Source: Clostridia bacterium (GTDB lineage Bacteria; Bacillota; Clostridia; Oscillospirales; CAG-272). Taken from it: DNA of 64,000 nt. Position 1 is the stretch's first letter; each line of letters begins with the position of its first letter. The translations under genes and the position numbers were made by a program. The DNA lies in the NCBI GenBank assembly GCA_017508195.1, contig JAFVZL010000039.1, positions 18,271-82,270 on the forward strand, read 5' to 3'. Shown piece after piece: positions 6,970 to 63,010 of the stretch. Under the pieces are notes generated by a model. The model saw nothing but the letters and a program-made list of their open reading frames with translations, did no database searches and was not told the DNA's origin.

Positions 6970-7111
6970 CTACAATCTTCGCGGTTGACAAAGGCGCGCG
7001 CATAATATATAATTAAAGTGATAATGATAAACCCGAAAATCGGCGTTGAAGCAGTGCCGGGCGGCTCTGTTTTAACTTTTTTGACCGTTACAACGAAAAT
7101 GGGAGGCGCGT

Positions 7112-25625: not shown

Positions 25626-25664
25626 AGGAGTAAGGGGCATTTGCTTCTTGCTCCTTCTTTTTTC
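25626..25664 (+). terminator. terminator-like hairpin at the equivalent position of repeat unit 2
   Basis: AGGAGTAAG ... CTTGCTCCT (one T:G pair) followed by TCTTTTTTC. The sequence is unrelated to the unit-1 hairpin but sits at the same place in the unit. Confidence 0.55.
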
Positions 25665-25812
25665 GTGGCTAAGGGCGGAAAACTCCGTTTTCCATTTTTA
25701 TTATTCTCCATTTATTATTTCCGTTCGCTTACTCTCGCTGTACCATCGTACAGCTTCGGCGCGCGAAACGAAAATTTCTCCTCAAAATCCTCTCAACCAC
25801 ACCTCTCTCTTT

Positions 25813-25970
25813 CACGTTCCCCAACGGGGAACATATCGCGTTTCGCGCCGCGAAACATATCGCTCCGCCACAGGCGGAATATCGCGTCACCCCCGGTGAC
25901 ATATCGCGCTTCGCGCAAGCGAAGCATCATAACTGCTGCCCGCGGCAGCGCTGCTTCGCAGGTCGAAGCG
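25813..25970. repeat. hairpin-train element, family 1 (copy A): about 7 short GC hairpins; ATATCGC(G) occurs four times, separating the first five
   Basis: ATATCGC(G) occurs at 25833, 25857, 25879 and 25901 (spacing 24/22/22 nt). Each interval holds a perfect 6-7-bp stem with a 3-4-nt loop. Confidence 0.8.
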
Positions 25971-25971
25971 C

Positions 25972-26013
25972 AAAAAACCACGGCTGAGTTTTTCTTCTCA
26001 GCCGTGGTTTTTT
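25972..26013. terminator. bidirectional rho-independent terminator
   Basis: A6-CCACGGCTGAG ... CTCAGCCGTGG-T6. It serves the minus-strand MFS gene (stop at 26040) and any plus-strand transcript through the repeats. Confidence 0.85.
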
Positions 26014-26039: not shown

Positions 26040-27362
26040 TTAGTTTGCAATATCCGCTTCTACGGCATCATTTTCTGTCGATTTTGCGCTCTCGCGTGCG
26101 AGCACCTCTATTTGGGTTTTGCGAGCCGAAGAAATGACGAATTGCACGATAACGATAACTGCCACCATCGCGACTGCGGCGGCAATGAAGCCGACGTTGT
26201 AGCTTTTTGTGATATCGTAGCAAAGATTGAACGCAGGGGAGCCGAGGGCATAGCCCGCGGTGTTCACCGAAACGAAGATACCGAGAACCTTGTCAAAGGA
26301 TTTTGCACCGAACAGATCGGATGCGTATATCGGCAGCATGATCGTTTCAAGCGGAAGTGCGAAGGATGAAATCGCAGAGTATACAAATGCAAGTGCAATA
26401 CCTAAGGGTGATGGGTCGATAAATACGAGTATCAGCGACGATATAATTGAGACACCGATACACCATGATGTGGTGGCTCTGAGTCCTGCCTTATCGTAAA
26501 TAACGCCCGTTAAAAACTTCGCGGCTGCGAGCACCAACGAATGGAAGCTGAGTATAAGAGATATCGTATCCGCATCGATATTCACGTCACGGTAATGCGC
26601 GGCAGTTACACCCGACAGTCCCTGAAGAATAAAGCCTGAGATAAAAATGCATACGAGAATTCCCCAGAAATACTTCTTGTGAAGTGCCTCCTTGAAGCTG
26701 ATACCGACCCAATCCGTACCGCGCTTTTTCTTTGCGCCCGATTTTGCCGGCACGGCATCTATCGGCTCACGCTTGGGGTCCTTAAAGAATATGAGAAGAA
26801 GAACGCCAACTACTGCAAGCACACAGGCAACGACGATATAAGCGGTTCTGTATCCCTCCGCGCCCGATTCGATGATCGGAGAAATGATCTGTATCGCTAT
26901 CGCTCCGCCGATACCGTTAGAGGCGAGCACCGCACCCATGATCGTACCTTTATTTTCCTTACAAAGGCGCGTTACAACGTATCCGACCATCGTGGTCGTG
27001 GTCCATGAAAGACCGATGCCGAGGAACACACCCGCGAGGTAAATAAGCCACACGTTAGGTGCGAACGCATACAGAAGTGTCGATATGATAAGCGAGCCGA
27101 AGCCTGCTACGATAAGCTTCTTCGGTCCGAATTTTGCAACGAGGAAGCCAAAGAACACGTTTATTATAGCAGTAGATACGTATCTGCAGCTGTCGGTGAT
27201 CGAATACACGCTTCGGTCGATTCCGAGCGCGTTGCTTATAGGAACGATATATAAGCTCTTAGGCGACGAGCAAAAGCCGAGCGCCACAAGAACCATCAGG
27301 AAGCAAAGTCCGATAATGACCCATTTGTAATCGAAGCGCTTCCTTTGATCCGAATTATTCAT
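26040..27362 (-). CDS. MFS transporter (440 aa)
   Basis: About 12 hydrophobic segments with a central basic loop (KDPKREPIDAVPAKSGAKKKRG). Subfamily not assignable by eye. Confidence 0.75.
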   Translation of the reverse strand: MNNSDQRKRFDYKWVIIGLCFLMVLVALGFCSSPKSLYIVPISNALGIDRSVYSITDSCRYVSTAIINVFFGFLVAKFGPKKLIVAGFGSLIISTLLYAFAPNVWLIYLAGVFLGIGLSWTTTTMVGYVVTRLCKENKGTIMGAVLASNGIGGAIAIQIISPIIESGAEGYRTAYIVVACVLAVVGVLLLIFFKDPKREPIDAVPAKSGAKKKRGTDWVGISFKEALHKKYFWGILVCIFISGFILQGLSGVTAAHYRDVNIDADTISLILSFHSLVLAAAKFLTGVIYDKAGLRATTSWCIGVSIISSLILVFIDPSPLGIALAFVYSAISSFALPLETIMLPIYASDLFGAKSFDKVLGIFVSVNTAGYALGSPAFNLCYDITKSYNVGFIAAAVAMVAVIVIVQFVISSARKTQIEVLARESAKSTENDAVEADIAN

Positions 27363-27628: not shown

Positions 27629-30600
27629 TTACTTTTCAGTGATCGTTACGCTGGTCTCGGGAGCCACGTCAACAAGAACGTATCTTCTGCCGCTAGCCTC
27701 GGTATTGACCTTAAGAGTGAGGTCACCGCACTCAGCCTCAGCCCACGTTGCGGGAACGTACGCCTTAACGGTGAGAGGCATATCGTAGATATCGTCGCGC
27801 TCGTTGTCGGTAAGGCTTACGGTAAGCTCACCCGTCTCGGCGTTGTAGCTCGAGGTGGTCTTTGCACTCGACCACTCGTGATAGTAGAGAGCTGCATCGG
27901 TATAGTTTGCGATCCATACCTTATCTCCGTAATCAACTGCGTGCTTGAAGAGTGCCTCGCCCTGAACCTTGGTGATCTTGTGACCGCCCGAGCCCTCTTC
28001 ATCAAGAGTGTCGGTTATAGCGTGGATACAGTAGGATACCCATGCCTGCTTGGATACCGCGGTGTCAATATAGCCGATCCACTTTTCGAGATCGCTTTCT
28101 ATATTTGCCTCACTTGTGGTAGACGCGCTGAAGGAGAGAGTCTTCTGTCTGTTGTTTACAGAGGTGAAGTAGTCCTTGGTGTGGTATCCGCCGCCAGCCG
28201 TGTTACGGCAGCCGATCGTCACGCCCTCCTCGTACGCCTTATCATAGATCTCTGCCCAATAGGTACCGTGTCCGATGATCTGGGTGCCCTTGGGAATGGT
28301 GGTCGAATAATTGACTACCTTGATAACGGTGCCCGCGGGAATAACGCTGTTGGTGTATTCTGCATTCGTAGTGATCGCGGTTCCCGAGGGGATAGTGATC
28401 TTGTTGGAAATAAGGTCTATCACCGCATCCTCTGCAACGATAAGAACACCGTTCTGAACGGCTACCGCCGTATCCGACACGAGTCTTACAACGCTTCCGT
28501 TGAGTGTTACATTAACGTCGGTTTCAGTAGCCTTTGTCGAGCCTGTCACAGCAATTCCGGGAGTGATGAAGGTGATGGCTCTTGAGCCAAGATCTCCGAA
28601 GAGATCCTTTATCATCTGCTGAGCACCGAACATCTCCGCGCTGGTGCTGCCCTTGGCAAAGGTGGTAGGAGTCTTGCTGATAGTATCGCTGGAGTTTCCG
28701 ATAGCGAACATAGATCCGCCCTCGTCGTTAACACCCCAGAACTTATGACTGTAGGAGTGAGCGATTATCTCGCTTCTGCCGGGAGTTGCCGAGAGAATGT
28801 CGCGCCAGAAGTCAACGACAAGACCCTGGCTCTCGTCACCGTCAACGTACTTATCGATTGTGTAGGTGTAATTACCGTTCTCGTCCATTACGTACTCAAG
28901 GATTCCGTCACCGTCAAGGTCCTCGGTAATAAGAGTACCGAACTTGCTCGGATAAATACCGAAGGAAAGAGCGAGCTTCGGATACTTAAGAAGCATATCC
29001 TTGGCAAATCTGCCCGTACCGATAAATCCGTCGTCAATAACGAAGGATACGGTAGCATCAGCACCGTTCTTATTTACTACGGTCGAATCTGCATCGAGCT
29101 CACCCGTAACGTTGAGCTTGATGGTGTAGGTGGAGATCGAGAGTCCGTCAGCCGAGGTAACCTTAACCTTTACCTTGCCGTCCTCGAGCTCGCCTATCTC
29201 ATATCTTGCGAGAGTGGAGTTAGGAATAACCGAGATCTCACCGAAACCGGTGTTTATATCCGCATCAACGGTGTAATCGTAAACATCCGACTTGAAGCCG
29301 GGGATGAACGCACCGCCAACTCCTATAGCGAGAGCCGAGGAATCGGAGGGATCGGCTACTCTGTAGCTCTCCTTGTTCATACAGTAATCCTCATAGGTCT
29401 TATTAAATACTACTACTGCCGACTTGGTGTCGGAGATGCTTCTATAATACTCACCCCATGCCGCAACCGACTCGAAGCTCTCGACTACGATAAGAAGGTC
29501 GTCGTCACAGCCATAGAAGGGAGATACCTTAGCGGAAGCAGATGCAGGGATCGAGATAACGCTACTCGGAACGTAGATATCTCGAAGTGAGGTGCAGCCG
29601 CTGAATGCATTTATACCGATCTTGGCAACCGATGCACCGATATGGATGCTCTTGATGGAAGAAAGGTTCATAAATGCGTATGCTGGGATCTCAAGACAGC
29701 TGTCAGAAATAATAACGGTGGAAAGAGACGCGGGAACGAAGCTTGCACCCGCTGCAGCTGCATCAGAGCCGAAGAAGTATGCAAGGAACGGATGAGAGGA
29801 GTTCACACTGCCGCCGATAAACGGAACGGTGAGCTTCTCGAGCTTGTCACAGCCCTCGAAGATACCGAAGCCGATAGCAACAAGGCTGTCGGGAAGATCG
29901 ACCACTGCGAGTGCAGTATCGGCAAACGCCTTCTGACCGATGGTCTTAAGCTCGCTGGCACCGGTGGTAACAAGCTCACCATTAGCGTTTACACTTACGG
30001 AGAAGTCAGCGAAGTGAACGCCCGTAAGAGAGGTACAGCCGTAGAATGCCGCGTTACCGATGTTCGTTACGGTCTCGGGAATGTAAACGTACTTGATAGA
30101 TGTCATTGCGCGGAAAGCGTTAGACTTGATGGATACAACCTTCTCACCGTTGTAGGTAGAAGGAATAACAACCATAGAGGGCTCGCCTGTGATGCCCGTT
30201 ACGGCATATCCGCCGTCCACTGCCTCGTAGGTCAGCTCGGGGTTAACACTCGCTGTTGGGTCAGAAAGAACGATATTCATAACCGCGCTCATGGGAGAAA
30301 CGTAAACGTAGTTATCGTTTGCCTCAAAGCTTACGGTAACGATGTATCTGCCGGGCATCGTCTTTGCGTTGCCGGTAAAGCTTACCTTAACGTCAGCGGG
30401 AATATCACCGATAAGCTCGATGGATTTTTCCTTTCCGTCATAGATGAACTGAGTATCCTTGATAGATGCCGAGAACGCTGCCTTGTTGACTACGACGGTA
30501 GCAACCATGGGAGCAACGGGCTCATAGGATATCGAGGACGAGAAGGTCGCGGTTACGGTGTAAACTCCTACGTTAACGATATCGTCTACCTCATTACCGC

Positions 30601-31639
30601 TTTCATCGACTGCGGTATAAGTGACACCGAGTCCCGAGGGAAGCTCACCCGTGATCGCGGGCATCTTCGAGGTGCCGTCATAGGTCTCGACCGAGCCGAG
30701 AAGGTGAATTCCCGACATATCGTGAGTCAGCTTGTAAATGGACATGGTCGCACTCATATTCCCGATGGGCTCGTAGTTATCGCTGACCGTAAAGCTCGCG
30801 GTAACGGTATAGGTGCCGACGTCGGTCTGTCTGTTTCCAACGTAGCTTACCTCAACGTCCTCGGGAACGCCGATTGCGAGGATGGATTTGGGAGTACCGT
30901 CGTAAAGGAATGCGGCATCCCTCATGGATATACCCGTCACGGTCGCGCGTCTGATCTCCACGGTCGCGCTGAGGGGCTCCATATCATTATAGTTTACGGA
31001 ATCACCGACGAGAGTAGCCCACACGGTATATTCACCGACGTTTACGATCTCATCGACGGTATTTCCGTCCTTGTCCTTATAAACGTATGTTGCGGAAACG
31101 CCTGCGGGAAGTCTGCCCTGGATCTCACCTGTCACCGCTACACCGTCATAGATCTTGGTCGCTCCGACAAGAGTAACACCCGAAACGTCGTAGGTAGCCT
31201 TATTTATCGTAAGGGTAGCGGTCTTGGACTCACCCTCGAGCTTAACACCCTTAAAGTAGAAGTCCGCAGTTACCGTGTAGGTACCTGCATTCATATATCT
31301 GTTGGTGGAATAAAGCACCGTTATGCCCTCGGGCACGGTAGCCTTGTCAATAGACAGATCGTGATAGGTGCCGTCATAGGTGACGGTCTTATCGTTAAAT
31401 ACAACGCCCTTGAGGTCGGGAGCTTCTGTCTCAACGCCGGGGCCGGGGGTGGGATCGCCACCCTCGAGCTTCTCTTCGCACTTGTCGCAGATCTTATCAC
31501 CGTTGGCATCCTCGTGGACACAGGTATCGTCACCGCCGGGAAGAAGCGAATTAATAATATCGCAGGATGACATTGCAAGAACGAGCGCAAATGCCAGAGC
31601 GAGGAGAAGAATATGCTTGAATTTTAAGTTTTTCATCAT
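27629..31639 (-). CDS. giant multidomain surface lipoprotein: YDG/MBG-type repeats + BspA-type LRR + cadherin-like sandwich + polysaccharide-deacetylase (NodB/CE4)-like C-terminal region
   Basis: Lipobox LAMSSC|D. A CVHEDANGDKICDKC motif. At least 5 ~90-aa repeats with (K/T)xYDG(T/V)...VGxYTVTA. LRR units such as IPETVTNIGNAAFYGCTSLTGV. Cadherin-like GFKSDVYDYTVDA. NodB motifs VSFVIDDG and HSYSH. Confidence 0.75.
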   Translation of the reverse strand: MMKNLKFKHILLLALAFALVLAMSSCDIINSLLPGGDDTCVHEDANGDKICDKCEEKLEGGDPTPGPGVETEAPDLKGVVFNDKTVTYDGTYHDLSIDKATVPEGITVLYSTNRYMNAGTYTVTADFYFKGVKLEGESKTATLTINKATYDVSGVTLVGATKIYDGVAVTGEIQGRLPAGVSATYVYKDKDGNTVDEIVNVGEYTVWATLVGDSVNYNDMEPLSATVEIRRATVTGISMRDAAFLYDGTPKSILAIGVPEDVEVSYVGNRQTDVGTYTVTASFTVSDNYEPIGNMSATMSIYKLTHDMSGIHLLGSVETYDGTSKMPAITGELPSGLGVTYTAVDESGNEVDDIVNVGVYTVTATFSSSISYEPVAPMVATVVVNKAAFSASIKDTQFIYDGKEKSIELIGDIPADVKVSFTGNAKTMPGRYIVTVSFEANDNYVYVSPMSAVMNIVLSDPTASVNPELTYEAVDGGYAVTGITGEPSMVVIPSTYNGEKVVSIKSNAFRAMTSIKYVYIPETVTNIGNAAFYGCTSLTGVHFADFSVSVNANGELVTTGASELKTIGQKAFADTALAVVDLPDSLVAIGFGIFEGCDKLEKLTVPFIGGSVNSSHPFLAYFFGSDAAAAGASFVPASLSTVIISDSCLEIPAYAFMNLSSIKSIHIGASVAKIGINAFSGCTSLRDIYVPSSVISIPASASAKVSPFYGCDDDLLIVVESFESVAAWGEYYRSISDTKSAVVVFNKTYEDYCMNKESYRVADPSDSSALAIGVGGAFIPGFKSDVYDYTVDADINTGFGEISVIPNSTLARYEIGELEDGKVKVKVTSADGLSISTYTIKLNVTGELDADSTVVNKNGADATVSFVIDDGFIGTGRFAKDMLLKYPKLALSFGIYPSKFGTLITEDLDGDGILEYVMDENGNYTYTIDKYVDGDESQGLVVDFWRDILSATPGRSEIIAHSYSHKFWGVNDEGGSMFAIGNSSDTISKTPTTFAKGSTSAEMFGAQQMIKDLFGDLGSRAITFITPGIAVTGSTKATETDVNVTLNGSVVRLVSDTAVAVQNGVLIVAEDAVIDLISNKITIPSGTAITTNAEYTNSVIPAGTVIKVVNYSTTIPKGTQIIGHGTYWAEIYDKAYEEGVTIGCRNTAGGGYHTKDYFTSVNNRQKTLSFSASTTSEANIESDLEKWIGYIDTAVSKQAWVSYCIHAITDTLDEEGSGGHKITKVQGEALFKHAVDYGDKVWIANYTDAALYYHEWSSAKTTSSYNAETGELTVSLTDNERDDIYDMPLTVKAYVPATWAEAECGDLTLKVNTEASGRRYVLVDVAPETSVTITEK

Positions 31640-31650
31640 TTACTCCTCCT

Positions 31651-34600
31651 TTAGTTTTCGTCGGCAGAGGACGAATCGACTGCCGTCGAGAATGTGTGCA
31701 GACTGTGGCCTGTCACACCGACTACGTTACCGGGAACTCTCGAACGAATTACCTCGGGATCGTCTACGCTTATATAATAGGTCTTGCCGTTGCTTGCAAC
31801 GATAGTTACGGTACCGCTTGACTTGTCGTAAGTGTATCCGTCCTTGACGAATCTGATTACATCTCCGTTCTCGAGCTCGAGAAGAGATATTCCGAAGCCG
31901 TATCTTACGTATTTAGCCTCGGTGATGCCGTCGGCTGTTAGAGTGATGGTTCTGCCCTCGGCGGTAGCCTTGGCGGGCACGAATACCTTATCCTCACCCG
32001 CGATCTCGAAGCCCTCGATCTCATCACCGTAAAGAAGAACGAAGTCACGGTCGAGAGTTACCTTAACCTCGGCACCCTCGGTCACTACCTCCTCGACCTC
32101 GGGGTTAGCGATAACTACGTTATCATCCTTGAAGTATACGTTCTCAAGAATACTGTCTGCCATCGCAAGACCGATGGGAGACTTTCTTACTGCGTGGACG
32201 TGTCCGTACTGGAAGCCGTCTCCGGCATCATACTTGAAGTCGCCCTTGGAAAGAGTCGAGCCTACCCAGTTCGCGCCAACGAGATGATAGTGGTCGTTAC
32301 CGCTCGCGATGCTCTCCTGATATGCACGGAAGAAGGAGGGAGCACCCATGTGCGCGGGAAGCTGAACTATAAAGAGCTCGAGTGGATCGTTAGCCTCGCC
32401 TACGTTGCAGGTATCGGTGAAGGTAGCGTAGAGCTGATCGATGTTGAGGCCGTAATATCCGTCACCGAACTCGTCACACTCACTCGCATCCGCTGTAGCT
32501 TCGCCCTGATACCAGCCCATGCCCTTGATATTGTATCCCTGAAGGGGAGCTATCATGGCATTGTAGATCTGGTGCTCGGCAGCGGAGCTCGAAGCCATAG
32601 GATCGTAGGCGTTAGAAATAAAGTTGGATATTGCCTTACCGTTATAGTTAAGGTCAATTATTGCTATGGTGGGGTTGCCCTCAAGCTCGACCGCAAGTCT
32701 TGTAGCCATTACGTAGCCTACCGCGGAAATACCCTCGGTGCTGTCGTCTCTTGAAAGAGTCTTGCTGTTTACGTCGAACCAGGACGCTCTGCCAAAGTCA
32801 TCGAGCACGCTCTCAGAGAGGCTCGCACCGATGCTGAAGCAACGGATGTTATCGTAGTTATCCGCAAGAGCCTTATACTCAGCGAAGTCCTCCATCTTGT
32901 AAGCGCCGAAGTTAGCGTTACTCTGACCTGCCATTACCCATACCTCACCGATATCGATATCGGTATAGGTCGCACCGCCGAACTTGCCCTCCTCCTTAAC
33001 GTCGAGGGTGAGTCCCTTGGCATAATCCATAGCGGGAAGAGTGGCATTCCACTTTCCGTCAGCGACGGTAGCGGTCACACTGACATCACCGAGAGTTACG
33101 GTGATAACCGAGCCGTTCGTGGAGCAGCTTCCCCATACGTTTATAGGCTTACCTGCCTGGAATACCATGCCGTTTGCGAACAGCTTGTTATTTATCTGAA
33201 GCTTAGTCACGTTATCTCCACTCATAAGTATGTATGTTCCCGATACGGTATCAAATACGAGCGTGCACTCACCGTCAAAGGTATGCGTACCCGAAACACC
33301 GTTCTCGGCACGGATAACGGTATTGCCGTCACCCTCTCGGAGCATAACGTTACCCGAAGCGAGGGGAACGTCACCGAGTGTAATATCACAGTCGCTTATT
33401 ACGATGGGATAAGCCGTACCGTTTCCGATAAAGGGAGTATTAACCGTATTTACCTTGCAGTCCTTGAGCCACATTTTATTCGTAGAGCCTGCCGCGGTCG
33501 TACCGACTCTGCTTACACCGTCGAACTCGCAGTTCTTGAAATAAATGCTGGAGTCCGTGGAATGGCTAACAACGGGAATCGAATTAACGAGTCCCTTCTC
33601 GGCAGCTACACCCGAAATGGCAACCTTGAAATTACAGTTCTCGGCAGTCATAAATGCCGTGGACTGAAGATAGATCATCGGGAATGAAAGCGACGATTTA
33701 TAGTAGTAATCATATGAATACCTATTGTTGGCATCGGGACCGAGAGTAAGATCGCATCCGTAATCCTCACCAGTGTAGGTAAAATCAACGTTATCCATAT
33801 AGAAACGGCAGTCCTGAAGCTGGATCATATTAGCCGATCCGTTGGTTACCTTACCGTTTGCGATCTCAGTACGGATCCTACCCGAAAGGTTCGTTTCAAC
33901 GAAGTCTATATTAGTGAAGCTTACGACAGACTCGGGGTCAGCATTATTGACGTAGATCAGACCGCCCGCATATCCTCTGAGCTTGACAGTGCATACGTTG
34001 CCCTCGGCATCCGCGCCGTCAATAGAAAGACGGAACAGTCCGCCACCGCTGAAGAAATGAGCCGCTCTTTTGTTTCCAACGTCAAATCCGTTAAAGTCGA
34101 GGAATAAGGAGCCGTTGCCGTTGCCGCTGCCAGTAAGACTCGTCGCAAGGTTATTACGCTCAGCAACAACCTTAGTGACCGCTGCGGTAGCAACAGTTTT
34201 TACATCGAATGCCGCACCAAGAGCTCCGGCACCCGAGAGTATATTATTGTAAAGCGTCTCGCTTACCTCTCCTCTGTCGGGAATGATCGTTACGGTGGTA
34301 ACGTAGCTCGCGCCGCTCTTATCAACGAGAGTCCACTTTCCGCTCTCGAGCTCGGCAAGCTCTGCATGAGCGGTAGCAACGGTGAGGGACTCCGAAACGT
34401 TCGCGGTAGGCACGTCGATAAGCGTGCTACCCGTGCCGTACCAGAGCTTGATCATATCCTTGGTCGCACCTGCACCGAGAATGGAAACACCGCTGAAGGA
34501 AACGCCCGCACCGTGGAATACGTCACCGTTCACGTCGGACGCACCGCCGAAGATAGCCTGAGAAGCCACAAACGAGGTGTCAACAGCCGTACACCAGCTG

Positions 34601-35370
34601 CCCGCCGCCATACGGTATGCGGTACCTGCGGCGATCTTGGAGCGTTCAAGTCTTACGGTAGAGCCCTTTGCGTAGACACCTATCGATGCATCGGTTGACG
34701 CGGTAATCTCAGAGCCGATAACCGTAAGGTCAACGGTATCAGCCGCTACGAGCACCGGGCTCGCACCCGTTTCTAGAGCATTGTGGGTGACGTCTGCATT
34801 TCTGAGGATGAGCTCACCCGCCGTACCCTTGGCACAAACACCGTATACGTCGATAACGTCAGCAGAATAAGTGATATCGATATCGTAGATCTCTGCATAA
34901 GCAACGGAGTCGAGCGCGATAACACCGTTATACTGATCAGCCACAAGTATGCCGCCGACCTCGGCGTCATAGTTATATCCGCCGTCAATCTCAAGTACCG
35001 CGAGATCCTTAGCAGAAATAACCGATCCGCCCTCGGTAGCAGTTATACCCGAGAAATCGAGCGTGTAACCGCCAAGATCAACGTACACGCTCTCGACACC
35101 CGTACCGCCGAGCGCTACCCGCTTGGTTGCCGCAGCATCCGAGAGCAGCTTAAGTGTAGCAGTACCGGCACCGAGTGTGCCAACCTTTTCACTGAGCTCC
35201 TCTGCCATCGCATCAAACGTACCCGTCACCGTGGTAGCATCGCCACTCGCGGGGGACAGGATAAGCTGTGCCTCGTTCGTGCCCTCTGCCGAAGTCAAGA
35301 GCACGAGGCTCACAGACAACAGAAGCGCAAGAACGAGAATGACAGAGATAATTCCAATCCTTCTTTTCAT
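31651..35370 (-). CDS. giant secreted protein: beta-helix-like N-terminal ~800 aa + sialate O-acetylesterase (SASA/SGNH)-like C-terminal domain
   Basis: Signal peptide. Gly/Thr/Val-rich ~20-25-aa periodic region. C-terminal FANGMVFQAGKPINVWG ... GEVWVMAGQSNA, which is the family hallmark. Start at ATG 35370 (AAAGGAG SD). 11 nt upstream of the next gene, so an operon. Confidence 0.75.
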   Translation of the reverse strand: MKRRIGIISVILVLALLLSVSLVLLTSAEGTNEAQLILSPASGDATTVTGTFDAMAEELSEKVGTLGAGTATLKLLSDAAATKRVALGGTGVESVYVDLGGYTLDFSGITATEGGSVISAKDLAVLEIDGGYNYDAEVGGILVADQYNGVIALDSVAYAEIYDIDITYSADVIDVYGVCAKGTAGELILRNADVTHNALETGASPVLVAADTVDLTVIGSEITASTDASIGVYAKGSTVRLERSKIAAGTAYRMAAGSWCTAVDTSFVASQAIFGGASDVNGDVFHGAGVSFSGVSILGAGATKDMIKLWYGTGSTLIDVPTANVSESLTVATAHAELAELESGKWTLVDKSGASYVTTVTIIPDRGEVSETLYNNILSGAGALGAAFDVKTVATAAVTKVVAERNNLATSLTGSGNGNGSLFLDFNGFDVGNKRAAHFFSGGGLFRLSIDGADAEGNVCTVKLRGYAGGLIYVNNADPESVVSFTNIDFVETNLSGRIRTEIANGKVTNGSANMIQLQDCRFYMDNVDFTYTGEDYGCDLTLGPDANNRYSYDYYYKSSLSFPMIYLQSTAFMTAENCNFKVAISGVAAEKGLVNSIPVVSHSTDSSIYFKNCEFDGVSRVGTTAAGSTNKMWLKDCKVNTVNTPFIGNGTAYPIVISDCDITLGDVPLASGNVMLREGDGNTVIRAENGVSGTHTFDGECTLVFDTVSGTYILMSGDNVTKLQINNKLFANGMVFQAGKPINVWGSCSTNGSVITVTLGDVSVTATVADGKWNATLPAMDYAKGLTLDVKEEGKFGGATYTDIDIGEVWVMAGQSNANFGAYKMEDFAEYKALADNYDNIRCFSIGASLSESVLDDFGRASWFDVNSKTLSRDDSTEGISAVGYVMATRLAVELEGNPTIAIIDLNYNGKAISNFISNAYDPMASSSAAEHQIYNAMIAPLQGYNIKGMGWYQGEATADASECDEFGDGYYGLNIDQLYATFTDTCNVGEANDPLELFIVQLPAHMGAPSFFRAYQESIASGNDHYHLVGANWVGSTLSKGDFKYDAGDGFQYGHVHAVRKSPIGLAMADSILENVYFKDDNVVIANPEVEEVVTEGAEVKVTLDRDFVLLYGDEIEGFEIAGEDKVFVPAKATAEGRTITLTADGITEAKYVRYGFGISLLELENGDVIRFVKDGYTYDKSSGTVTIVASNGKTYYISVDDPEVIRSRVPGNVVGVTGHSLHTFSTAVDSSSADEN

Positions 35371-35439
35371 TTTTTTCTCCTTTATAGATTTTCTCATAGG
35401 TAGTCGCGCCCATCGCGCGAAGTATTTAAGAGTATAAAT

Positions 35440-35467: not shown

Positions 35468-35651
35468 ATTGACACTCTTCACAAAAAAAAGAGGGGCTTA
35501 TACCCCACTAAGCATAAAGCTTTGAATATTTTTTACAAATATTTTCTCCCTTTTTAACGAAATTTCAAAAGAGAGCAAAATGCAGCATAAAAAACGTAAG
35601 AAAACTACGCCGACAAGCCGTTTTCAGCGGTGTCGACTCGGGAAATGCAAC

Positions 35652-36030
35652 CTATTCTCCTCGTTTCCCTCACGTTCTCGCACCGCGAGAACATATCGCG
35701 CTTTCCCTCGGAAAGCATATCGCTCCGCCACAGGCGGAATATCGCGTCACCTCTCGGTGACATATCGCGCTTCGCACAAGCGAAGCACTCATAACGCGAC
35801 ATAGTCGCTCATAACTGCTACCCGTGGCAGCCCTTCTCCTCGTTCCCTCACGTTCTCGCACCGCGAGAACATATCGCGCTTTCCCTCGGAAAGCATATCG
35901 CTCCGCCACAGGCGGAATATCGCGTCACCTCCCGGTGACATATCGCGCTTCGCACAAGCGAAGCATACCCGGGCTTCATCCTCTGGAGCAGGATTTCATT
36001 TATAGCTTCTCCCCCTCACGTTCTCGCACC
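35652..36030. repeat. hairpin-train element, family 1 (copies B and C, tandem 178-bp units, plus a truncated third start)
   Basis: ATATCGC(G) at 35693/35717/35739/35762 and again at 35871/35895/35917/35940 (offset 178). CACGTTCTCGCACC restarts at 36017 and then diverges. Confidence 0.85.
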
Positions 36031-36097: not shown

Positions 36098-36129
36098 AAG
36101 AAAAAGGCGGAGCACAAAAACTCCGCCTT
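36098..36129 (-). terminator. rho-independent terminator (minus strand)
   Basis: AAGGCGGAG-CACAAAAA-CTCCGCCTT. The T-rich tract (TTTTTCTTT) is present only in the minus-strand reading. Confidence 0.7.
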
Positions 36130-36171
36130 CATATTCAATTTATAGTTATGAGCCAAGCTCACCGTTAAGTT

Positions 36172-36491
36172 CGGTAGCTAATTAATTTTGATGGATAGTG
36201 TCAGACGCGACCCGAAGCAATAGTGACCTATTGCGAGCTTGGGAGCGATCGGGTGCTTGCCGCGGTAGCTGATTACGCGGTAGCTGATTAATTCCGATGG
36301 ATAGTGTCTGACGCGACCCGAAGCAATAGTGACCTATTGCGAGCTTGGGAGCGATCGGTGCTTGCCGCGGTAGCTGATTACGCGGTAGCTAATTAATTTC
36401 GATGGATAGTGTCAGGCGCGACCCGAAGCAATAGTGACCTATTGCGAGCTTGGGAGCGATCGGGTGCTTGCCGCGAAATTAATAGCTACCG
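36172..36491. repeat. 3 x ~105-bp tandem array bracketed by 18/19-nt inverted repeats (MITE-like)
   Basis: Units start at 36172, 36278 and 36383. Left end is CGGTAGCTAATTAATTT. Right end is CGAAATTAATAGCTACCG, the reverse complement of the unit start minus 1 nt. No ORF. Each unit contains a GCAATAG-TGAC-CTATTGC hairpin. Confidence 0.8.
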
Positions 36492-37087
36492 ATTGACAAC
36501 ACCGCAGATATAGCTACAACCAATGGGAACACAGCAAGCACTCCCGATGCAATCATCTCACAGAGCGATACTATACTGAGTATGCCCTCCGAATGCTTTC
36601 TCGAATAGCGCGCGAGCACGAGCACGATAATAGAAATAATGAGGGAACATATACCGTACGCCATAAGAAGCATTACCGACGTCGCCATGCTTATACCCGC
36701 CATAACAGCGTTTTCGCCGCCTGCCATAAGCATCGAAAAAGCGACAGAAAGATCTGAGGATGCCTTGAATGCAAAGCATATGAACACAACGTTCAGTATG
36801 ATGAAAACGCCCGAAGCGATAGCAAATCCGAGCGCGGATGCAAAGCTCTTTACGGGTGCTTCACTCTCCCCCTCGTCATTCTCCTCGCTCTCGCTCTTTT
36901 CCGCATCCGACTTATCGGCACCGTCTGTATCGGCATTATCCGCCTCTCCCTCTTGTATAGGAGTATCGGATAGTATTTCCCCATCCGCCGTATCGTCATC
37001 GCTTTCTGTTATATCGAGCTCTTCATTGTCATAGCTTTCGTCAGGAGCAACGTCGAGCTGCTGTTCTAGATAATCCGGTTTAGCCAT
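36479..37087 (-). CDS. membrane protein with ~85-aa highly acidic N-terminal region and 4 TM segments, unknown function
   Basis: ATG 37087 is preceded by GGAGGTGA (the listed GTG 37096 lies inside the SD). The last 4-5 codons and the stop lie inside the right inverted repeat of the 105-bp array. Confidence 0.6.
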   Translation of the reverse strand: MAKPDYLEQQLDVAPDESYDNEELDITESDDDTADGEILSDTPIQEGEADNADTDGADKSDAEKSESEENDEGESEAPVKSFASALGFAIASGVFIILNVVFICFAFKASSDLSVAFSMLMAGGENAVMAGISMATSVMLLMAYGICSLIISIIVLVLARYSRKHSEGILSIVSLCEMIASGVLAVFPLVVAISAVLSIGSY

Positions 37088-37212
37088 AGCGTTCACCTCC
37101 GATAGTGCTATTTTACCACTTTTTTACCTTTAAGTCAATACCGTTTAAGAACATAGGCACGGATGCGGGAATACAATAGAAAAAAAGCCATAAAAAAATC
37201 TGTAAATGCCTG

Positions 37213-62436: not shown

Positions 62437-62778
62437 TCACTGGTTTTTCAAAGTCGTAACAGACGAGACAAGCATACGGCGGATACTGCCGCAATCGTGA
62501 AGTGCTTTTTTTAATGCTTCTTCCGGTATAATGGATGCTCTTTGCATTAACTCCAACCAATACTCCGTTTCATAACGCTCCTTGAGTGCGATTTGTAATT
62601 TCGAGGTGAGATCCGCTTTACTTTGAGCATATTTTGCTTCTCTTATATTTGCACCTATACTTGTAGCAGCGCGTTCGAGTTGGTTTTTGAGAGAATAATG
62701 CCCTTGAATTTGGTCACATAGATTTAAAATTTTCACGGAAAAATCCATAGATAAGTCAGCTAACCTATTCTCTTTCAT
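62437..62778 (-). CDS. four-helix-bundle protein (TIGR02436; 23S rRNA intervening-sequence protein family)
   Basis: 113 aa. SIGANIREAKYAQSKADLTSKLQIALKERYETEYWLELM is the family signature. Confidence 0.8.
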   Translation of the reverse strand: MKENRLADLSMDFSVKILNLCDQIQGHYSLKNQLERAATSIGANIREAKYAQSKADLTSKLQIALKERYETEYWLELMQRASIIPEEALKKALHDCGSIRRMLVSSVTTLKNQ

Positions 62779-62796
62779 GAAAGCTCTCCAAATAAT

Positions 62797-62989
62797 GAAA
62801 TCCCGCGACCTTCAGTCGCGCGAAGAAATCTTCACTGCGTTCAGAAGAAATCCGCCTTCAGCGGAATAAGTCGAAAACTTTGTTTTCGGTTAGAATTAAA
62901 TCCACCCACCGCCGCAGCGATTTCTTCCGAGCTTCAGCGAGGATTTCTTCTGCGTAGCAGATTTATTCCACCATCAGGTGGATTTAATT
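62797..62989. repeat. hairpin/linker train, family 2 (GAAGAAATC linker in both orientations)
   Basis: Partial GAAATCC at 62797, full GAAGAAATC at 62822 and 62844, and the reverse complement GATTTCTTC at 62919 and 62942. Hairpins are CGCGAC-CTTCA-GTCGCG, CCGC-CTTCA-GCGG, CGAAAAC-TTT-GTTTTCG and TCCACC-ATCA-GGTGGA. Confidence 0.7.
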
Positions 62990-63010
62990 GAAAACACCAT
63001 CGGTGTTTTC
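62990..63010 (-). terminator. probable guaA terminator
   Basis: GAAAACACC-ATC-GGTGTTTTC, 2 nt after the stop. The U-tract lies partly within the stem. Confidence 0.5.

Follow-up and report, generated by a model that had tools for sequence, protein, structure and literature searches.

Hairpin Arrays with an Invariant 7-Nucleotide Linker at Both Ends of a Surface Protein Operon in a Clostridia Bacterium, a Putative Linker Variant of the Gut-1 RNA

RESULTS

Architecture of the Arrays

The present study concerns series of short hairpins in a 64,000-nucleotide (nt) stretch of DNA, here termed the window, from a Clostridia bacterium (assembly GCA_017508195.1, contig JAFVZL010000039.1, positions 18,271 to 82,270). 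In the region 35652-36030 of the window, perfect hairpins of variable sequence alternate with a constant 7-nt linker, ATATCGC, and are grouped in tandem units, an anatomy that was proposed in an earlier note made from the letters alone and that is borne out by the sequence. The features are listed in Table I. The segment 35652-35965 of the + strand consists of two tandem units that are 99% identical over 123 nt, and because of this identity the duplication appears to be recent; the spacing of the units is 178 nt, or 179 nt in the leader owing to a 1-nt indel. The linker had been given as ATATCGC(G), 7-8 nt in length; the heptamer stands, but when the flanking G and C are assigned to the stems its length is always exactly 7 nt. 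Unit 2 differs from unit 1 in the 1-nt leader indel and in the loop of the fourth hairpin, which is TCCC instead of TCTC. The final, seventh hairpin of unit 1 (CTGCTA-CCCG-TGGCAG) belongs to a mini-array with a second linker flavor, (T)CATAAC, and contains one T·G wobble, so that it is not the plain stem described previously; an ATATAAC-type array that may be compared with this mini-array is present in the related locus L070. A third unit starts and then breaks off, as had been noted, and consists of the leader CTTCTCCCCCTCAC followed by the 5' half and loop of the first hairpin (GTTCTCGCACC), but this 18-nt stub (CCCTCACGTTCTCGCACC, 36013-36030) lies 168 nt past its counterpart in unit 2, not 178 nt. 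The sequence GGATTTCATTTATAG in the diverged tail that precedes it is similar to the center motif GGATTTATA of the complete elements described below.

The boundary at which the arrays start, ..CCCCTCAC-G or ..CCACCAC-G, recurs in metagenome-assembled genomes (MAGs), where a pyrimidine-rich stretch ending in CAC is followed by G[hairpin]C-ATATCGC. In the window, the hexamer TATTCT at 35653-35658, just before the leader of unit 1, is a weak -10-like sequence. A coding interpretation, in which the array would be part of a 74-residue open reading frame (ORF; 35580-35804), was ruled out because the array recurs in other frames and contexts and because the modules follow one another with a period (22-24 nt) that is not divisible by three.

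A sister array lies at 25.8 kb. The stems of its third to fifth hairpins are common to it and the 35.6-kb units, and its first two hairpins (GTTCCCC-AAC-GGGGAAC and GTTTCGC-GCC-GCGAAAC) differ from those of the 35.6-kb units with the stems fully compensated; all 12 linkers of the three arrays in the window are intact. Decay of stems without compensatory change, which had been named as an outcome that would mark the arrays as a decaying duplication, is therefore not seen. The 25.8- and 35.6-kb loci are direct repeats on either side of the MFS/LRR/SASA operon, and both adjoin terminators; the genes neighboring the arrays at 35652-36030 encode the SASA-domain, LRR, and MFS proteins and a DUF6442-like protein. 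The location upstream of a giant surface protein operon, as previously described, is thus correct for the 35.6-kb arrays but incomplete, since that operon also has the sister array at its 3' end. Two further assemblies of the organism (L205 and L206) carry the arrays unchanged and so provide no variation from which selection could be judged.

Table I. Features of the window (positions from its first letter)
Feature	Position	Strand	Remarks
Leader of unit 1	35656-35673	+	Pyrimidine-rich, TCTCCTCGTTTCCCTCAC; ends at the ..YCAC-G boundary common to arrays of relatives
Array 1	35674-35786	+	Five hairpins, all perfect, with stems of 6-8 bp and loops of 3-4 nt; four exact ATATCGC linkers
Array 1, hairpin 1	35674-35692	+	GTTCTCGC-ACC-GCGAGAAC
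Array 1, hairpin 2	35700-35716	+	GCTTTCC-CTC-GGAAAGC
Array 1, hairpin 3	35724-35738	+	TCCGCC-ACA-GGCGGA
Array 1, hairpin 4	35746-35761	+	GTCACC-TCTC-GGTGAC
Array 1, hairpin 5	35769-35786	+	GCTTCGC-ACAA-GCGAAGC
Array 1, ATATCGC linkers	starts 35693, 35717, 35739, 35762	+	
Mini-array of unit 1	35787-35831	+	Second linker flavor (T)CATAAC: ACTCATAAC-[GCGAC ATA GTCGC]-TCATAAC-[CTGCTA CCCG TGGCAG]
Unit 2, leader and array 2	35834-35964	+	Tandem copy of unit 1
Diverged tail and broken-off third unit	35966-36030	+	
Terminator-like hairpin bounding the array region	36103-36130		GGCGGAG/CTCCGCC; T-run good on -, weaker on +
Sister array	25816-25925	+	Five hairpins, four ATATCGC linkers at 25833, 25857, 25879, 25901
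Segment after sister array	25926-26013		ATCATAACT linker, then hairpins GCTGCC-CGC-GGCAGC and GCTTCG-CAGGT-CGAAGC, then terminator
Bidirectional terminator	25972-26013		Used jointly with the convergent MFS gene
Operon, MFS gene	26040-27362	-	
Operon, BspA-type LRR protein	27629-31639	-	
Operon, SASA-domain protein	31651-35397	-	
PF05635/TIGR02436 four-helix-bundle (Avd-like) gene	62437-62778	-	113 residues; PF05635 E 3.7e-24; TIGR02436 95 bits
Complete bipartite element	62790-63010	-	Distal linkers AATAAAT/AAGAAAT, proximal ATTTCTT; between guaA stop (63012) and the PF05635 gene
R1 match, sister array	25836-25922	-	27.3 bits, E 7e-4
R1 match, array 2	35842-35946		23.5 bits
R1 match, array 1	35663-35768	-	23.4 bits
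Gut-1 match, sister array	25804-25887	-	29.2 bits
Gut-1 match, unit 2	35890-35973	-	18.7 bits
Gut-1 match, bipartite element	62915-62990	-	23.6 bits

Non-randomness and Folding

ATATCGC occurs 26 times in the window, as compared with 15.2 ± 3.6 in shuffled sequences, and 12 of the 26 copies make up the three phased clusters. Each of the three arrays contains a run of 6-7 perfect hairpins; 20 shuffled sequences contained 0-3 runs of at least three hairpins each, a figure that refers to the number of runs and not to their length. The folding z-scores for unit 1 are -5.9 for RNA of the + strand, -4.7 for RNA of the - strand, and -6.2 for DNA of the + strand, and none of 200 shuffled sequences folds as well. 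The + strand is predicted to fold cleanly into seven successive hairpins, none of the linkers being paired, whereas the - strand mispairs over long range. The T·G wobble in the seventh hairpin of unit 1 is a pair on the + strand only.

Occurrence in Related Genomes

The earlier note had proposed a search for further copies of phased ATATCGC beyond the locus, and these were found both at 25.8 kb in the window and in dozens of gut and rumen Clostridia MAGs. In a scan for three phased ATATCGC copies, with one genome per species, at least 120 stretches matched. Among the matches listed, about 77 are trains with a hairpin in every spacer, nearly all from Clostridia/Oscillospirales MAGs of rumen and gut, and in 178 distinct hairpins, again among the matches listed, 995 of 1013 stem pairs are Watson-Crick, 8 are G·T, and 7 are A·C. 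The perfect hairpins of the relatives are 12-19 nt in length, and the conserved part is the 7-nt linker. Particular hairpin positions have features that are conserved across genomes (AAATCCC/GGGATTT and tandem G·A pairs), so that arbitrary insertions are not what the palindromes record. Single-arm arrays are frequent among the relatives; where one genome contains several copies, some hairpins are common to them and others are not (L029, L036, and the two loci of the window), and many linker flavors coexist in one genome. Other flavors observed in MAG loci are ATATAAC (L070), ATGATG together with GTGAAGT (L047), and TCGATAT (L078, 6450-6549). In L009, an AATTCAC-type array at 1967-2092 has an exact architectural mirror at 6976-7101, 5 kb away, with the same hairpins in reverse order and the linker GTGAATT; the layout of this pair is like that of terminal inverted repeats around a segment.

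A covariance model, R1, was generated from 29 ATATCGC-type distal arms (defined below) of MAGs with the window excluded, and gave exactly three matches in the 64-kb window, which are the three arrays. It should be noted that the scores are conservative because the RNAalifold structure on which the model is based uses a long-range helix, GATATAAATCCC/GGGATTTATATC, that is absent from the arrays in the window, rather than the local first hairpin. In the complete elements, two pairings are possible for the 5' end GATATAAATCCC, a local one and one with the center, and it was the long-range helix that RNAalifold selected. The compensated stems of the sister array and the comparisons among genomes support the view that the structure is selected or actively maintained and is not decaying. 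A phage origin was considered and rejected: 81 viral contigs match three phased ATATCGC copies, but only one (L170) is a true hairpin train, the rest being coding tandem repeats. A metagenome scan for the module of the fourth hairpin, aimed at close relatives of the module in the window, gave no match.

Complete Bipartite Elements and the PF05635 Gene

At many of the related loci, two inverted arrays are arranged around a center, ..GGGATTTATATC; the linker reads GCGATAT in the distal arm and ATATCGC in the proximal one. In nine MAG loci, a gene with the signature S[IVL]GAN begins ~15-40 nt after the proximal arm, with the exception of L027, in which the gene call is doubtful. The genes in the MAG loci were found by a search for this motif, and Pfam was run on the L080 gene and on the corresponding gene of the window. 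The L080 gene is assigned to PF05635 (23S rRNA intervening-sequence protein), NCBIfam's call is TIGR02436 (four helix bundle protein), and the closest solved structure to the protein of the window is PDB 2RLD, with five chains (E 3e-24). PF05635 is homologous to Avd of diversity-generating retroelements (DGRs) (PMC10053308). The window itself contains one module that combines a bipartite array with a PF05635 gene, at 62437-63010, and this combination is absent from the arrays at 35652-36030.

A metagenome search with an alignment of PF05635-like proteins yielded 80 loci, and in those with enough upstream sequence the plan is near-constant: often a tRNA gene, then a terminator-type hairpin, 3-4 [linker + hairpin] modules, the center, 3-4 modules with the reverse-complement linker, a ribosome-binding site, and the start codon. 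In sequence, the center is a repeat of the 3' half of the hairpin that comes first in the distal arm. A strict test for bipartite organization, in which an exact 6-mer must occur at least three times in phase and be followed by at least two phased copies of its reverse complement, was passed by 42 of 63 metagenome upstream regions as compared with 0 of 315 shuffled sequences. A co-oriented tRNA gene, of many identities, ends 220-320 nt before the start codon in 24 of 60 metagenome loci (L210-L269), where the PF05635 gene and its arrays follow single tRNA genes or clusters of them and the arrays begin right after the tRNA terminator. Linkers are identical within one element, and the linker pairs found are GTGAAAT/ATTTCAC, the most common, together with GAA(AT)/(AT)TTC, TGATG/CATCA, GTGATAT/ATATCAC, GTGAAGT/ACTTCAC, and GCGATAT/ATATCGC. 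The identity of the PF05635 proteins has a mean of 0.64 within a linker type versus 0.56 between types, a difference that none of 1000 permutations equaled, and the proteins of the ATATCGC clade are 78% identical among themselves and 48% identical to those of the ATTTCAC clade. The earlier note had proposed a check for a linked gene, and its result is the tight association of PF05635/TIGR02436 genes with the arrays; as judged from gene neighborhoods, the arrays are tied to these genes in the relatives. In the MAG loci of the ATATCGC type, the ribosome-binding site is ~15-40 nt past the last linker, and the proximal array must therefore be transcribed.

Several features of these elements may be recorded here. 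The center, in which ATTT or ATATC is added to the repeated 3' half, covaries with the first distal hairpin, as in aaatccc/gggattt, aaattcc/ggaattt, ggatcc/ggatcc, ccgtc/gacgg, and others (29 MAG distal arms; centers of L210-L289), and the ATATCGC-type center reads TGATATAAAT on the other strand, which is extended -10-like. A second distal-type arm or Gut-1 match in the same orientation is present shortly downstream of the PF05635 gene in L080 (~2780-2900), L255 (2291-2367), and L210 (2332-2408); a gene between direct copies of an arm has the geometry of the two ATATCGC arrays around the MFS/LRR/SASA operon.

The arrays at 35652-36030 lack the AAATCCC/GGGATTT hairpin, the center motif, and the partner arm of the complete elements. 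There is no phased GCGATAT on the + strand in the 64-kb window that could represent an inverted partner, and a PF05635 gene was not found among the genes neighboring the ATATCGC arrays. It is well supported by these comparisons that the two ATATCGC loci of the window represent orphan single arms of complete elements.

Strand Signals

In the proximal arms of the relatives, tandem G·A/A·G mismatches favor the strand of ATATCGC/ATTTCAC sense by 28 to 0, and four mismatch cases in distal arms are T·C/C·T, that is, G·A on the same sense. The loops of the relatives, read on this sense, are of the GNA/GNNA type (GAA, GCA, GTA, GCAA, GTAA, and GTCA). These signals, the wobble pair in the window, and the cleaner fold of the + strand point to the ATATCGC/ATTTCAC-sense strand as the strand that folds. 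An assignment of strand from the counts of G·U versus A·C pairs (8:7 and 8:5) was uninformative because the stems are almost purely Watson-Crick.

Relation to the Gut-1 RNA

The earlier note recognized no described RNA or repeat class in the arrays, but their architecture is that of the Gut-1 RNA (RF01706), which is the best Rfam match of all three, in each case on the - strand and below the gathering score of 50; at the gathering threshold, Rfam gave no match in the whole window. Gut-1 was described from human gut metagenome sequences with 43 members, without a sequenced organism, and with no function given (Weinberg et al. 2010, Genome Biol 11:R31, PMC2864571). Its consensus is a 77-nt motif of three hairpins, CAAUGAAAU-hp-GUGAAAU-hp-GUGAAAU-hp-GUGAAAU, where hp denotes a hairpin. 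In 14 of the 18 related loci scanned, the distal arm of GTGAAAT-type elements scores above the gathering threshold, at 51-90 bits, and the model has its match to the proximal arm on the opposite strand. The arrays at 35652-36030 consist, like Gut-1, of three or more short variable hairpins with an invariant 7-nt linker, but the linker on the Gut-1 strand is GCGAUAU (ATATCGC on +) rather than GUGAAAU, and it is this difference that leaves them below the threshold. Elements with GTGAAAT, GTGATAT, GCGATAT, GTGAAGT, and AAGAAAT linkers share one place upstream of PF05635 genes, which provides continuity between Gut-1 and the other flavors.

Gut-1 thus resembles the present elements in its architecture, its gut metagenome habitat, its Clostridia hosts, and the setting of the distal arm upstream of PF05635 genes. 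The arrays of the window differ from it in having five hairpins and other loops, in lacking the AAATCCC/GGGATTT first hairpin, in being tandemly duplicated, and in not being beside a PF05635 gene. Given the R1 and Gut-1 matches and the arm structure, the feature at 35652-36030 is a linker variant of the Gut-1 kind and an orphan copy of one arm. It is well supported that the region comprises about 2.1 tandem copies of a module in which a short pyrimidine-rich leader ending in CAC precedes 4-5 repeats of a perfect hairpin of free sequence plus the 7-nt motif, that the family of such arrays is common in uncultured Clostridia of gut and rumen, and that the Gut-1 RNA motif is its only described member; a literature search on ATATCGC hairpins and tandem hairpin arrays in Clostridia found nothing relevant. 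To our knowledge, the host assignment, the bipartite layout, the linker flavors, the association with PF05635 genes and tRNA clusters, and the strand signals are not in the 2010 description.

Other Repeats in the Window

The segment 25343-25816 contains two tandem units of ~245 nt, both of which end in the same pyrimidine-rich leader, TTTCTCCTCAAAATCCYCTCAACCAC...; a terminator-like hairpin (25626-25655) comes after the first unit, and the sister array after the second. A promoter-like site at 25689-25718 (+) is ahead of the sister array. At 36146-36475, between a gene for a 205-residue protein (36479-37096, -) and the terminator at 36130-36103, there is a 105-nt tandem repeat in ~2.9 copies with 94% matches, each unit of which carries CGCGGTAGCTGATTA twice. 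The number of copies is not constant among assemblies of the organism (L205/L206 have an additional 155 nt), and short contigs are broken within the repeat. The repeat has no Rfam match; we take its core, GCGGTAGC, to resemble the RfaH ops element. Look-ups for the 205-residue neighbor and for the NCBI homologue P0011 returned no record. Eight perfect hairpins are arranged back to back in an intergenic region at 2661-2840 without a constant linker, and several of their stems contain GAAAT/ATTTC.

DISCUSSION

The arrays belong to the Gut-1 kind; they are non-coding modules that are maintained and that fold as single strands, and their invariant part is the 7-nt linker. What this invariance is for can be approached through the complete elements, in which, whatever the flavor, the linker of one arm is the reverse complement of that of the other. 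Among 53 rungs with a deviant linker, the change is uncompensated in the partner arm in 52 and compensated in 1. Since the linkers of an element are identical and yet deviations are uncompensated across the arms, the complementarity of the arms is better read as a consequence of inverted copies of one motif, each of which is held constant on its own account, like a binding site. A tentative model, to which we would give somewhat less than an even chance, is that the arrays provide a multivalent single-stranded display of 7-nt motifs, with the pentamer of the four-helix-bundle protein as the candidate reader. In such a model the array would act as a single strand of ATATCGC sense (+ in the window), most likely as RNA, in which the hairpins, stiff and interchangeable, would leave the 7-nt motifs unpaired at regular intervals of ~22-24 nt and so offer a sequence-specific binder 4-5 identical short sites; the four-helix-bundle pentamer would be the prime candidate for this role. 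The complete elements would be the home site of the binder, serving in autoregulation or assembly, and the orphan arrays would be extra sites or decoys on separate small transcripts or untranslated regions, probably on + strand RNAs running into the neighboring terminators. The logic would be analogous to that by which CsrB/RsmZ titrate CsrA.

Several observations weigh against this model. The loops of the arrays of the window on the + strand are ACC, CTC, ACA, TCTC, and ACAA, none of which is GNA and which fit neither the GNA nor the GNNA rule. G·U pairs are nearly absent from the stems (8 G·T as compared with 7 A·C in 1013 pairs), and GNA/GNNA loops closed by C-G, a hallmark of very stable DNA mini-hairpins, are frequent in the relatives; both features are more DNA-like than is typical for RNA families. 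No convincing sigma-70 promoter was found before unit 1, where the promoter-like sites of the scan are on the - strand only. The strand on which Rfam places Gut-1 (GUGAAAU sense) is opposite to that of the G·A tandems and the GNA/GNNA loops, and it may be that the Rfam orientation of Gut-1 needs re-examination. The correlation between linker and protein clade could be simple co-inheritance of neighboring DNA. In 16 of 59 loci, an extended -10 sequence lies between the arrays and the start codon, so that the arrays there are upstream of the promoter and outside the mRNA. Finally, the PF05635 gene of the window bears ATTTCTT-type and not ATATCGC-type arrays, and a cognate protein for the arrays at 35652-36030 is therefore not seen in the 64 kb.

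One alternative is that the arrays are extragenic palindromes comparable with the repetitive extragenic palindromic (REP) sequences and bacterial interspersed mosaic elements (BIMEs) of Enterobacteria and Pseudomonas, which are associated with RAYT transposases; they would have no dedicated partner, would act in transcript protection or termination, as an exonuclease block or as a reserve terminator for both directions, or in the folding of single-stranded DNA, and would spread by duplication and linker recombination, possibly via a HUH/RAYT-type enzyme. The likeness includes the clustering of extragenic palindromes after gene ends, mosaics of palindromes and constant linkers, inverted doublets, and a short conserved single-stranded motif by each hairpin, and the comparison made in the earlier note is fair with respect to position, extragenic and after gene ends and terminators. 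Both loci of the window abut terminators, and of the 16 bipartite elements in MAGs for which an upstream gene was called, 12 are 4-176 nt after the end of a co-oriented gene. The sharing of some hairpins and not others among the copies of a genome (L029, L036, and the loci of the window), the coexistence of many flavors, the perfect stems with no excess of G·U on either strand, which would allow both strands to fold, and the loops of DNA mini-hairpin type are all in keeping with it. However, the REP palindrome is a conserved, imperfect one of 20-40 nt with a GTAG-type 5' tetranucleotide and is constant within a genome, whereas the present family has 178 different perfect hairpins of 12-19 nt that are free to vary and a linker that is conserved; the units are in one orientation per arm, and the associated gene encodes a four-helix-bundle protein. 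The alternative gives no reason for a 7-nt linker that is identical over 4-8 copies per element and across species, and it leaves the near-obligate pairing with PF05635 and the correlation with clade unexplained. No RAYT-like gene turned up among the ORFs scanned in the 64-kb window, and none of RAYT/IS200 type was seen beside the arrays examined, in a search that was not systematic. An origin and role of this sort is considered unlikely, though it deserves to be kept in mind. A purely neutral origin, with the arrays as relics of a complete element and chance tandem copies that have no present function, is consistent with the recent duplication of nearly identical units, the broken-off third copy, the missing partner arm, AAATCCC/GGGATTT hairpin, and center motif, and the identity of the arrays in two other assemblies of the organism. 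It is made quite improbable by the comparison of the 25.8- and 35.6-kb loci, in which the first two hairpins have diverged at several positions and yet all stems are perfect and 12 linkers are intact, and by the frequency of single-arm arrays in the relatives.

The uncompensated linkers, which are what would be expected of binding sites, would also suit arrays of iterons or operators in duplex DNA, in which a 7-bp motif recurs about two helical turns apart, is inverted between the arms, and is bound by, for example, the four-helix-bundle protein for autoregulation or for a nucleoprotein complex of the ParR/omega type. The phasing of 20-27 bp, the inversion of the arms around a center directly upstream of the gene, and the loci with an extended -10 downstream of the arrays, where these are promoter-upstream DNA, fit such an arrangement, but it does not explain why every spacer contains a perfect palindrome of arbitrary sequence, why the tandem G·A mismatches and GNA loops are strand-specific, or why orphan arrays are by terminators and far from promoters, and it is regarded as improbable. 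The same linker counts bear in the opposite sense on a ladder RNA, in which the GCGAUAU linkers of one arm would pair with the AUAUCGC linkers of the other, in cis or, for orphans, in trans, to form a rod of 7-bp helices with four-way junctions. RNAfold predicts a ladder for several complete elements, and the reverse complementarity of the arms in every flavor is suggestive of it, but that complementarity is automatic from inverted copies of one motif, a helix does not need all rungs to be identical, and no arm complementary to the flagged arrays is present in the window. With compensation in 1 of 53 rungs, the ladder was rejected as the main model and is considered very improbable.

The display model may be set beside other systems in which short motifs or repeats are presented in series. 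The sponge RNAs CsrB and RsmZ are functional analogues only, through the proposed logic of many copies of a short motif on a hairpin scaffold for a multimeric protein; their GGA motifs are mainly in hairpin loops, and their partner is CsrA/RsmE. The DGR of Bordetella phage BPP-1 is related through the homology of PF05635 with Avd. Avd is a pentameric nucleic-acid-binding four-helix bundle that functions in a ribonucleoprotein complex with the DGR RNA. The PF05635 genes discussed here differ in that they stand alone; neither a reverse transcriptase nor a template or variable repeat was seen near the scanned ORFs. PADLOC gave no match that would link the four-helix-bundle protein with defense, and a survey of HEPN proteins makes no mention of the four-helix-bundle family. 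The description of the arrays as the reverse of a clustered regularly interspaced short palindromic repeat (CRISPR) array holds as a formal analogy, the alternation of constant and variable segments, but the constant part is 7 nt rather than 23-47 nt, and the variable parts are palindromes of 12-19 nt, not non-palindromic spacers, with particular positions conserved across genomes; no cas genes are present among the ORFs scanned. Two further candidates were rejected. The integron attC site is a single long imperfect hairpin with R''/L''-L'/R' boxes (RYYYAAC...GTTRRRY), whereas the arrays are separate short hairpins, the first of which, GTT...AAC, has the reverse arrangement. The ToxI-like RNAs of type III toxin-antitoxin systems are identical repeats of 34-47 nt with a gene for an endoribonuclease toxin, whereas the modules here are 22-24 nt and variable, no toxin gene is present, and the partner protein has no PADLOC match.

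Taken by itself, the locus at 35652-36030 adds a further copy, with a new linker flavor, to a repeat family, and its value is in what followed from it. Gut-1 can now be placed in Clostridia, and the 77-nt motif described for it is one arm of an inverted pair with a 7-nt linker that exists in at least six flavors and tracks the clade of the adjacent Avd-like gene. Gut-1 and the stand-alone "23S rRNA intervening sequence" proteins become one testable pair, and in the present genome both ends of a surface protein operon are marked by the same element. An extension of the display model, which we rate as doubtful but worth stating, is that the arrays and the stand-alone Avd-like proteins form an unrecognized two-part system in which a given protein clade would recognize a 7-nt address of its own (GTGAAAT, GCGATAT, TGATG, and others), presented 4-5 times on a single-stranded hairpin scaffold to match the pentamer; the complete inverted arrays would be the home site, and orphan arrays would extend the reach of the protein, here to both ends of the operon. 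If this is true, it would suggest that Rfam orients Gut-1 on the wrong strand, and both Gut-1, an orphan since 2010, and the very large family of PF05635/TIGR02436 proteins outside DGRs would gain a function.

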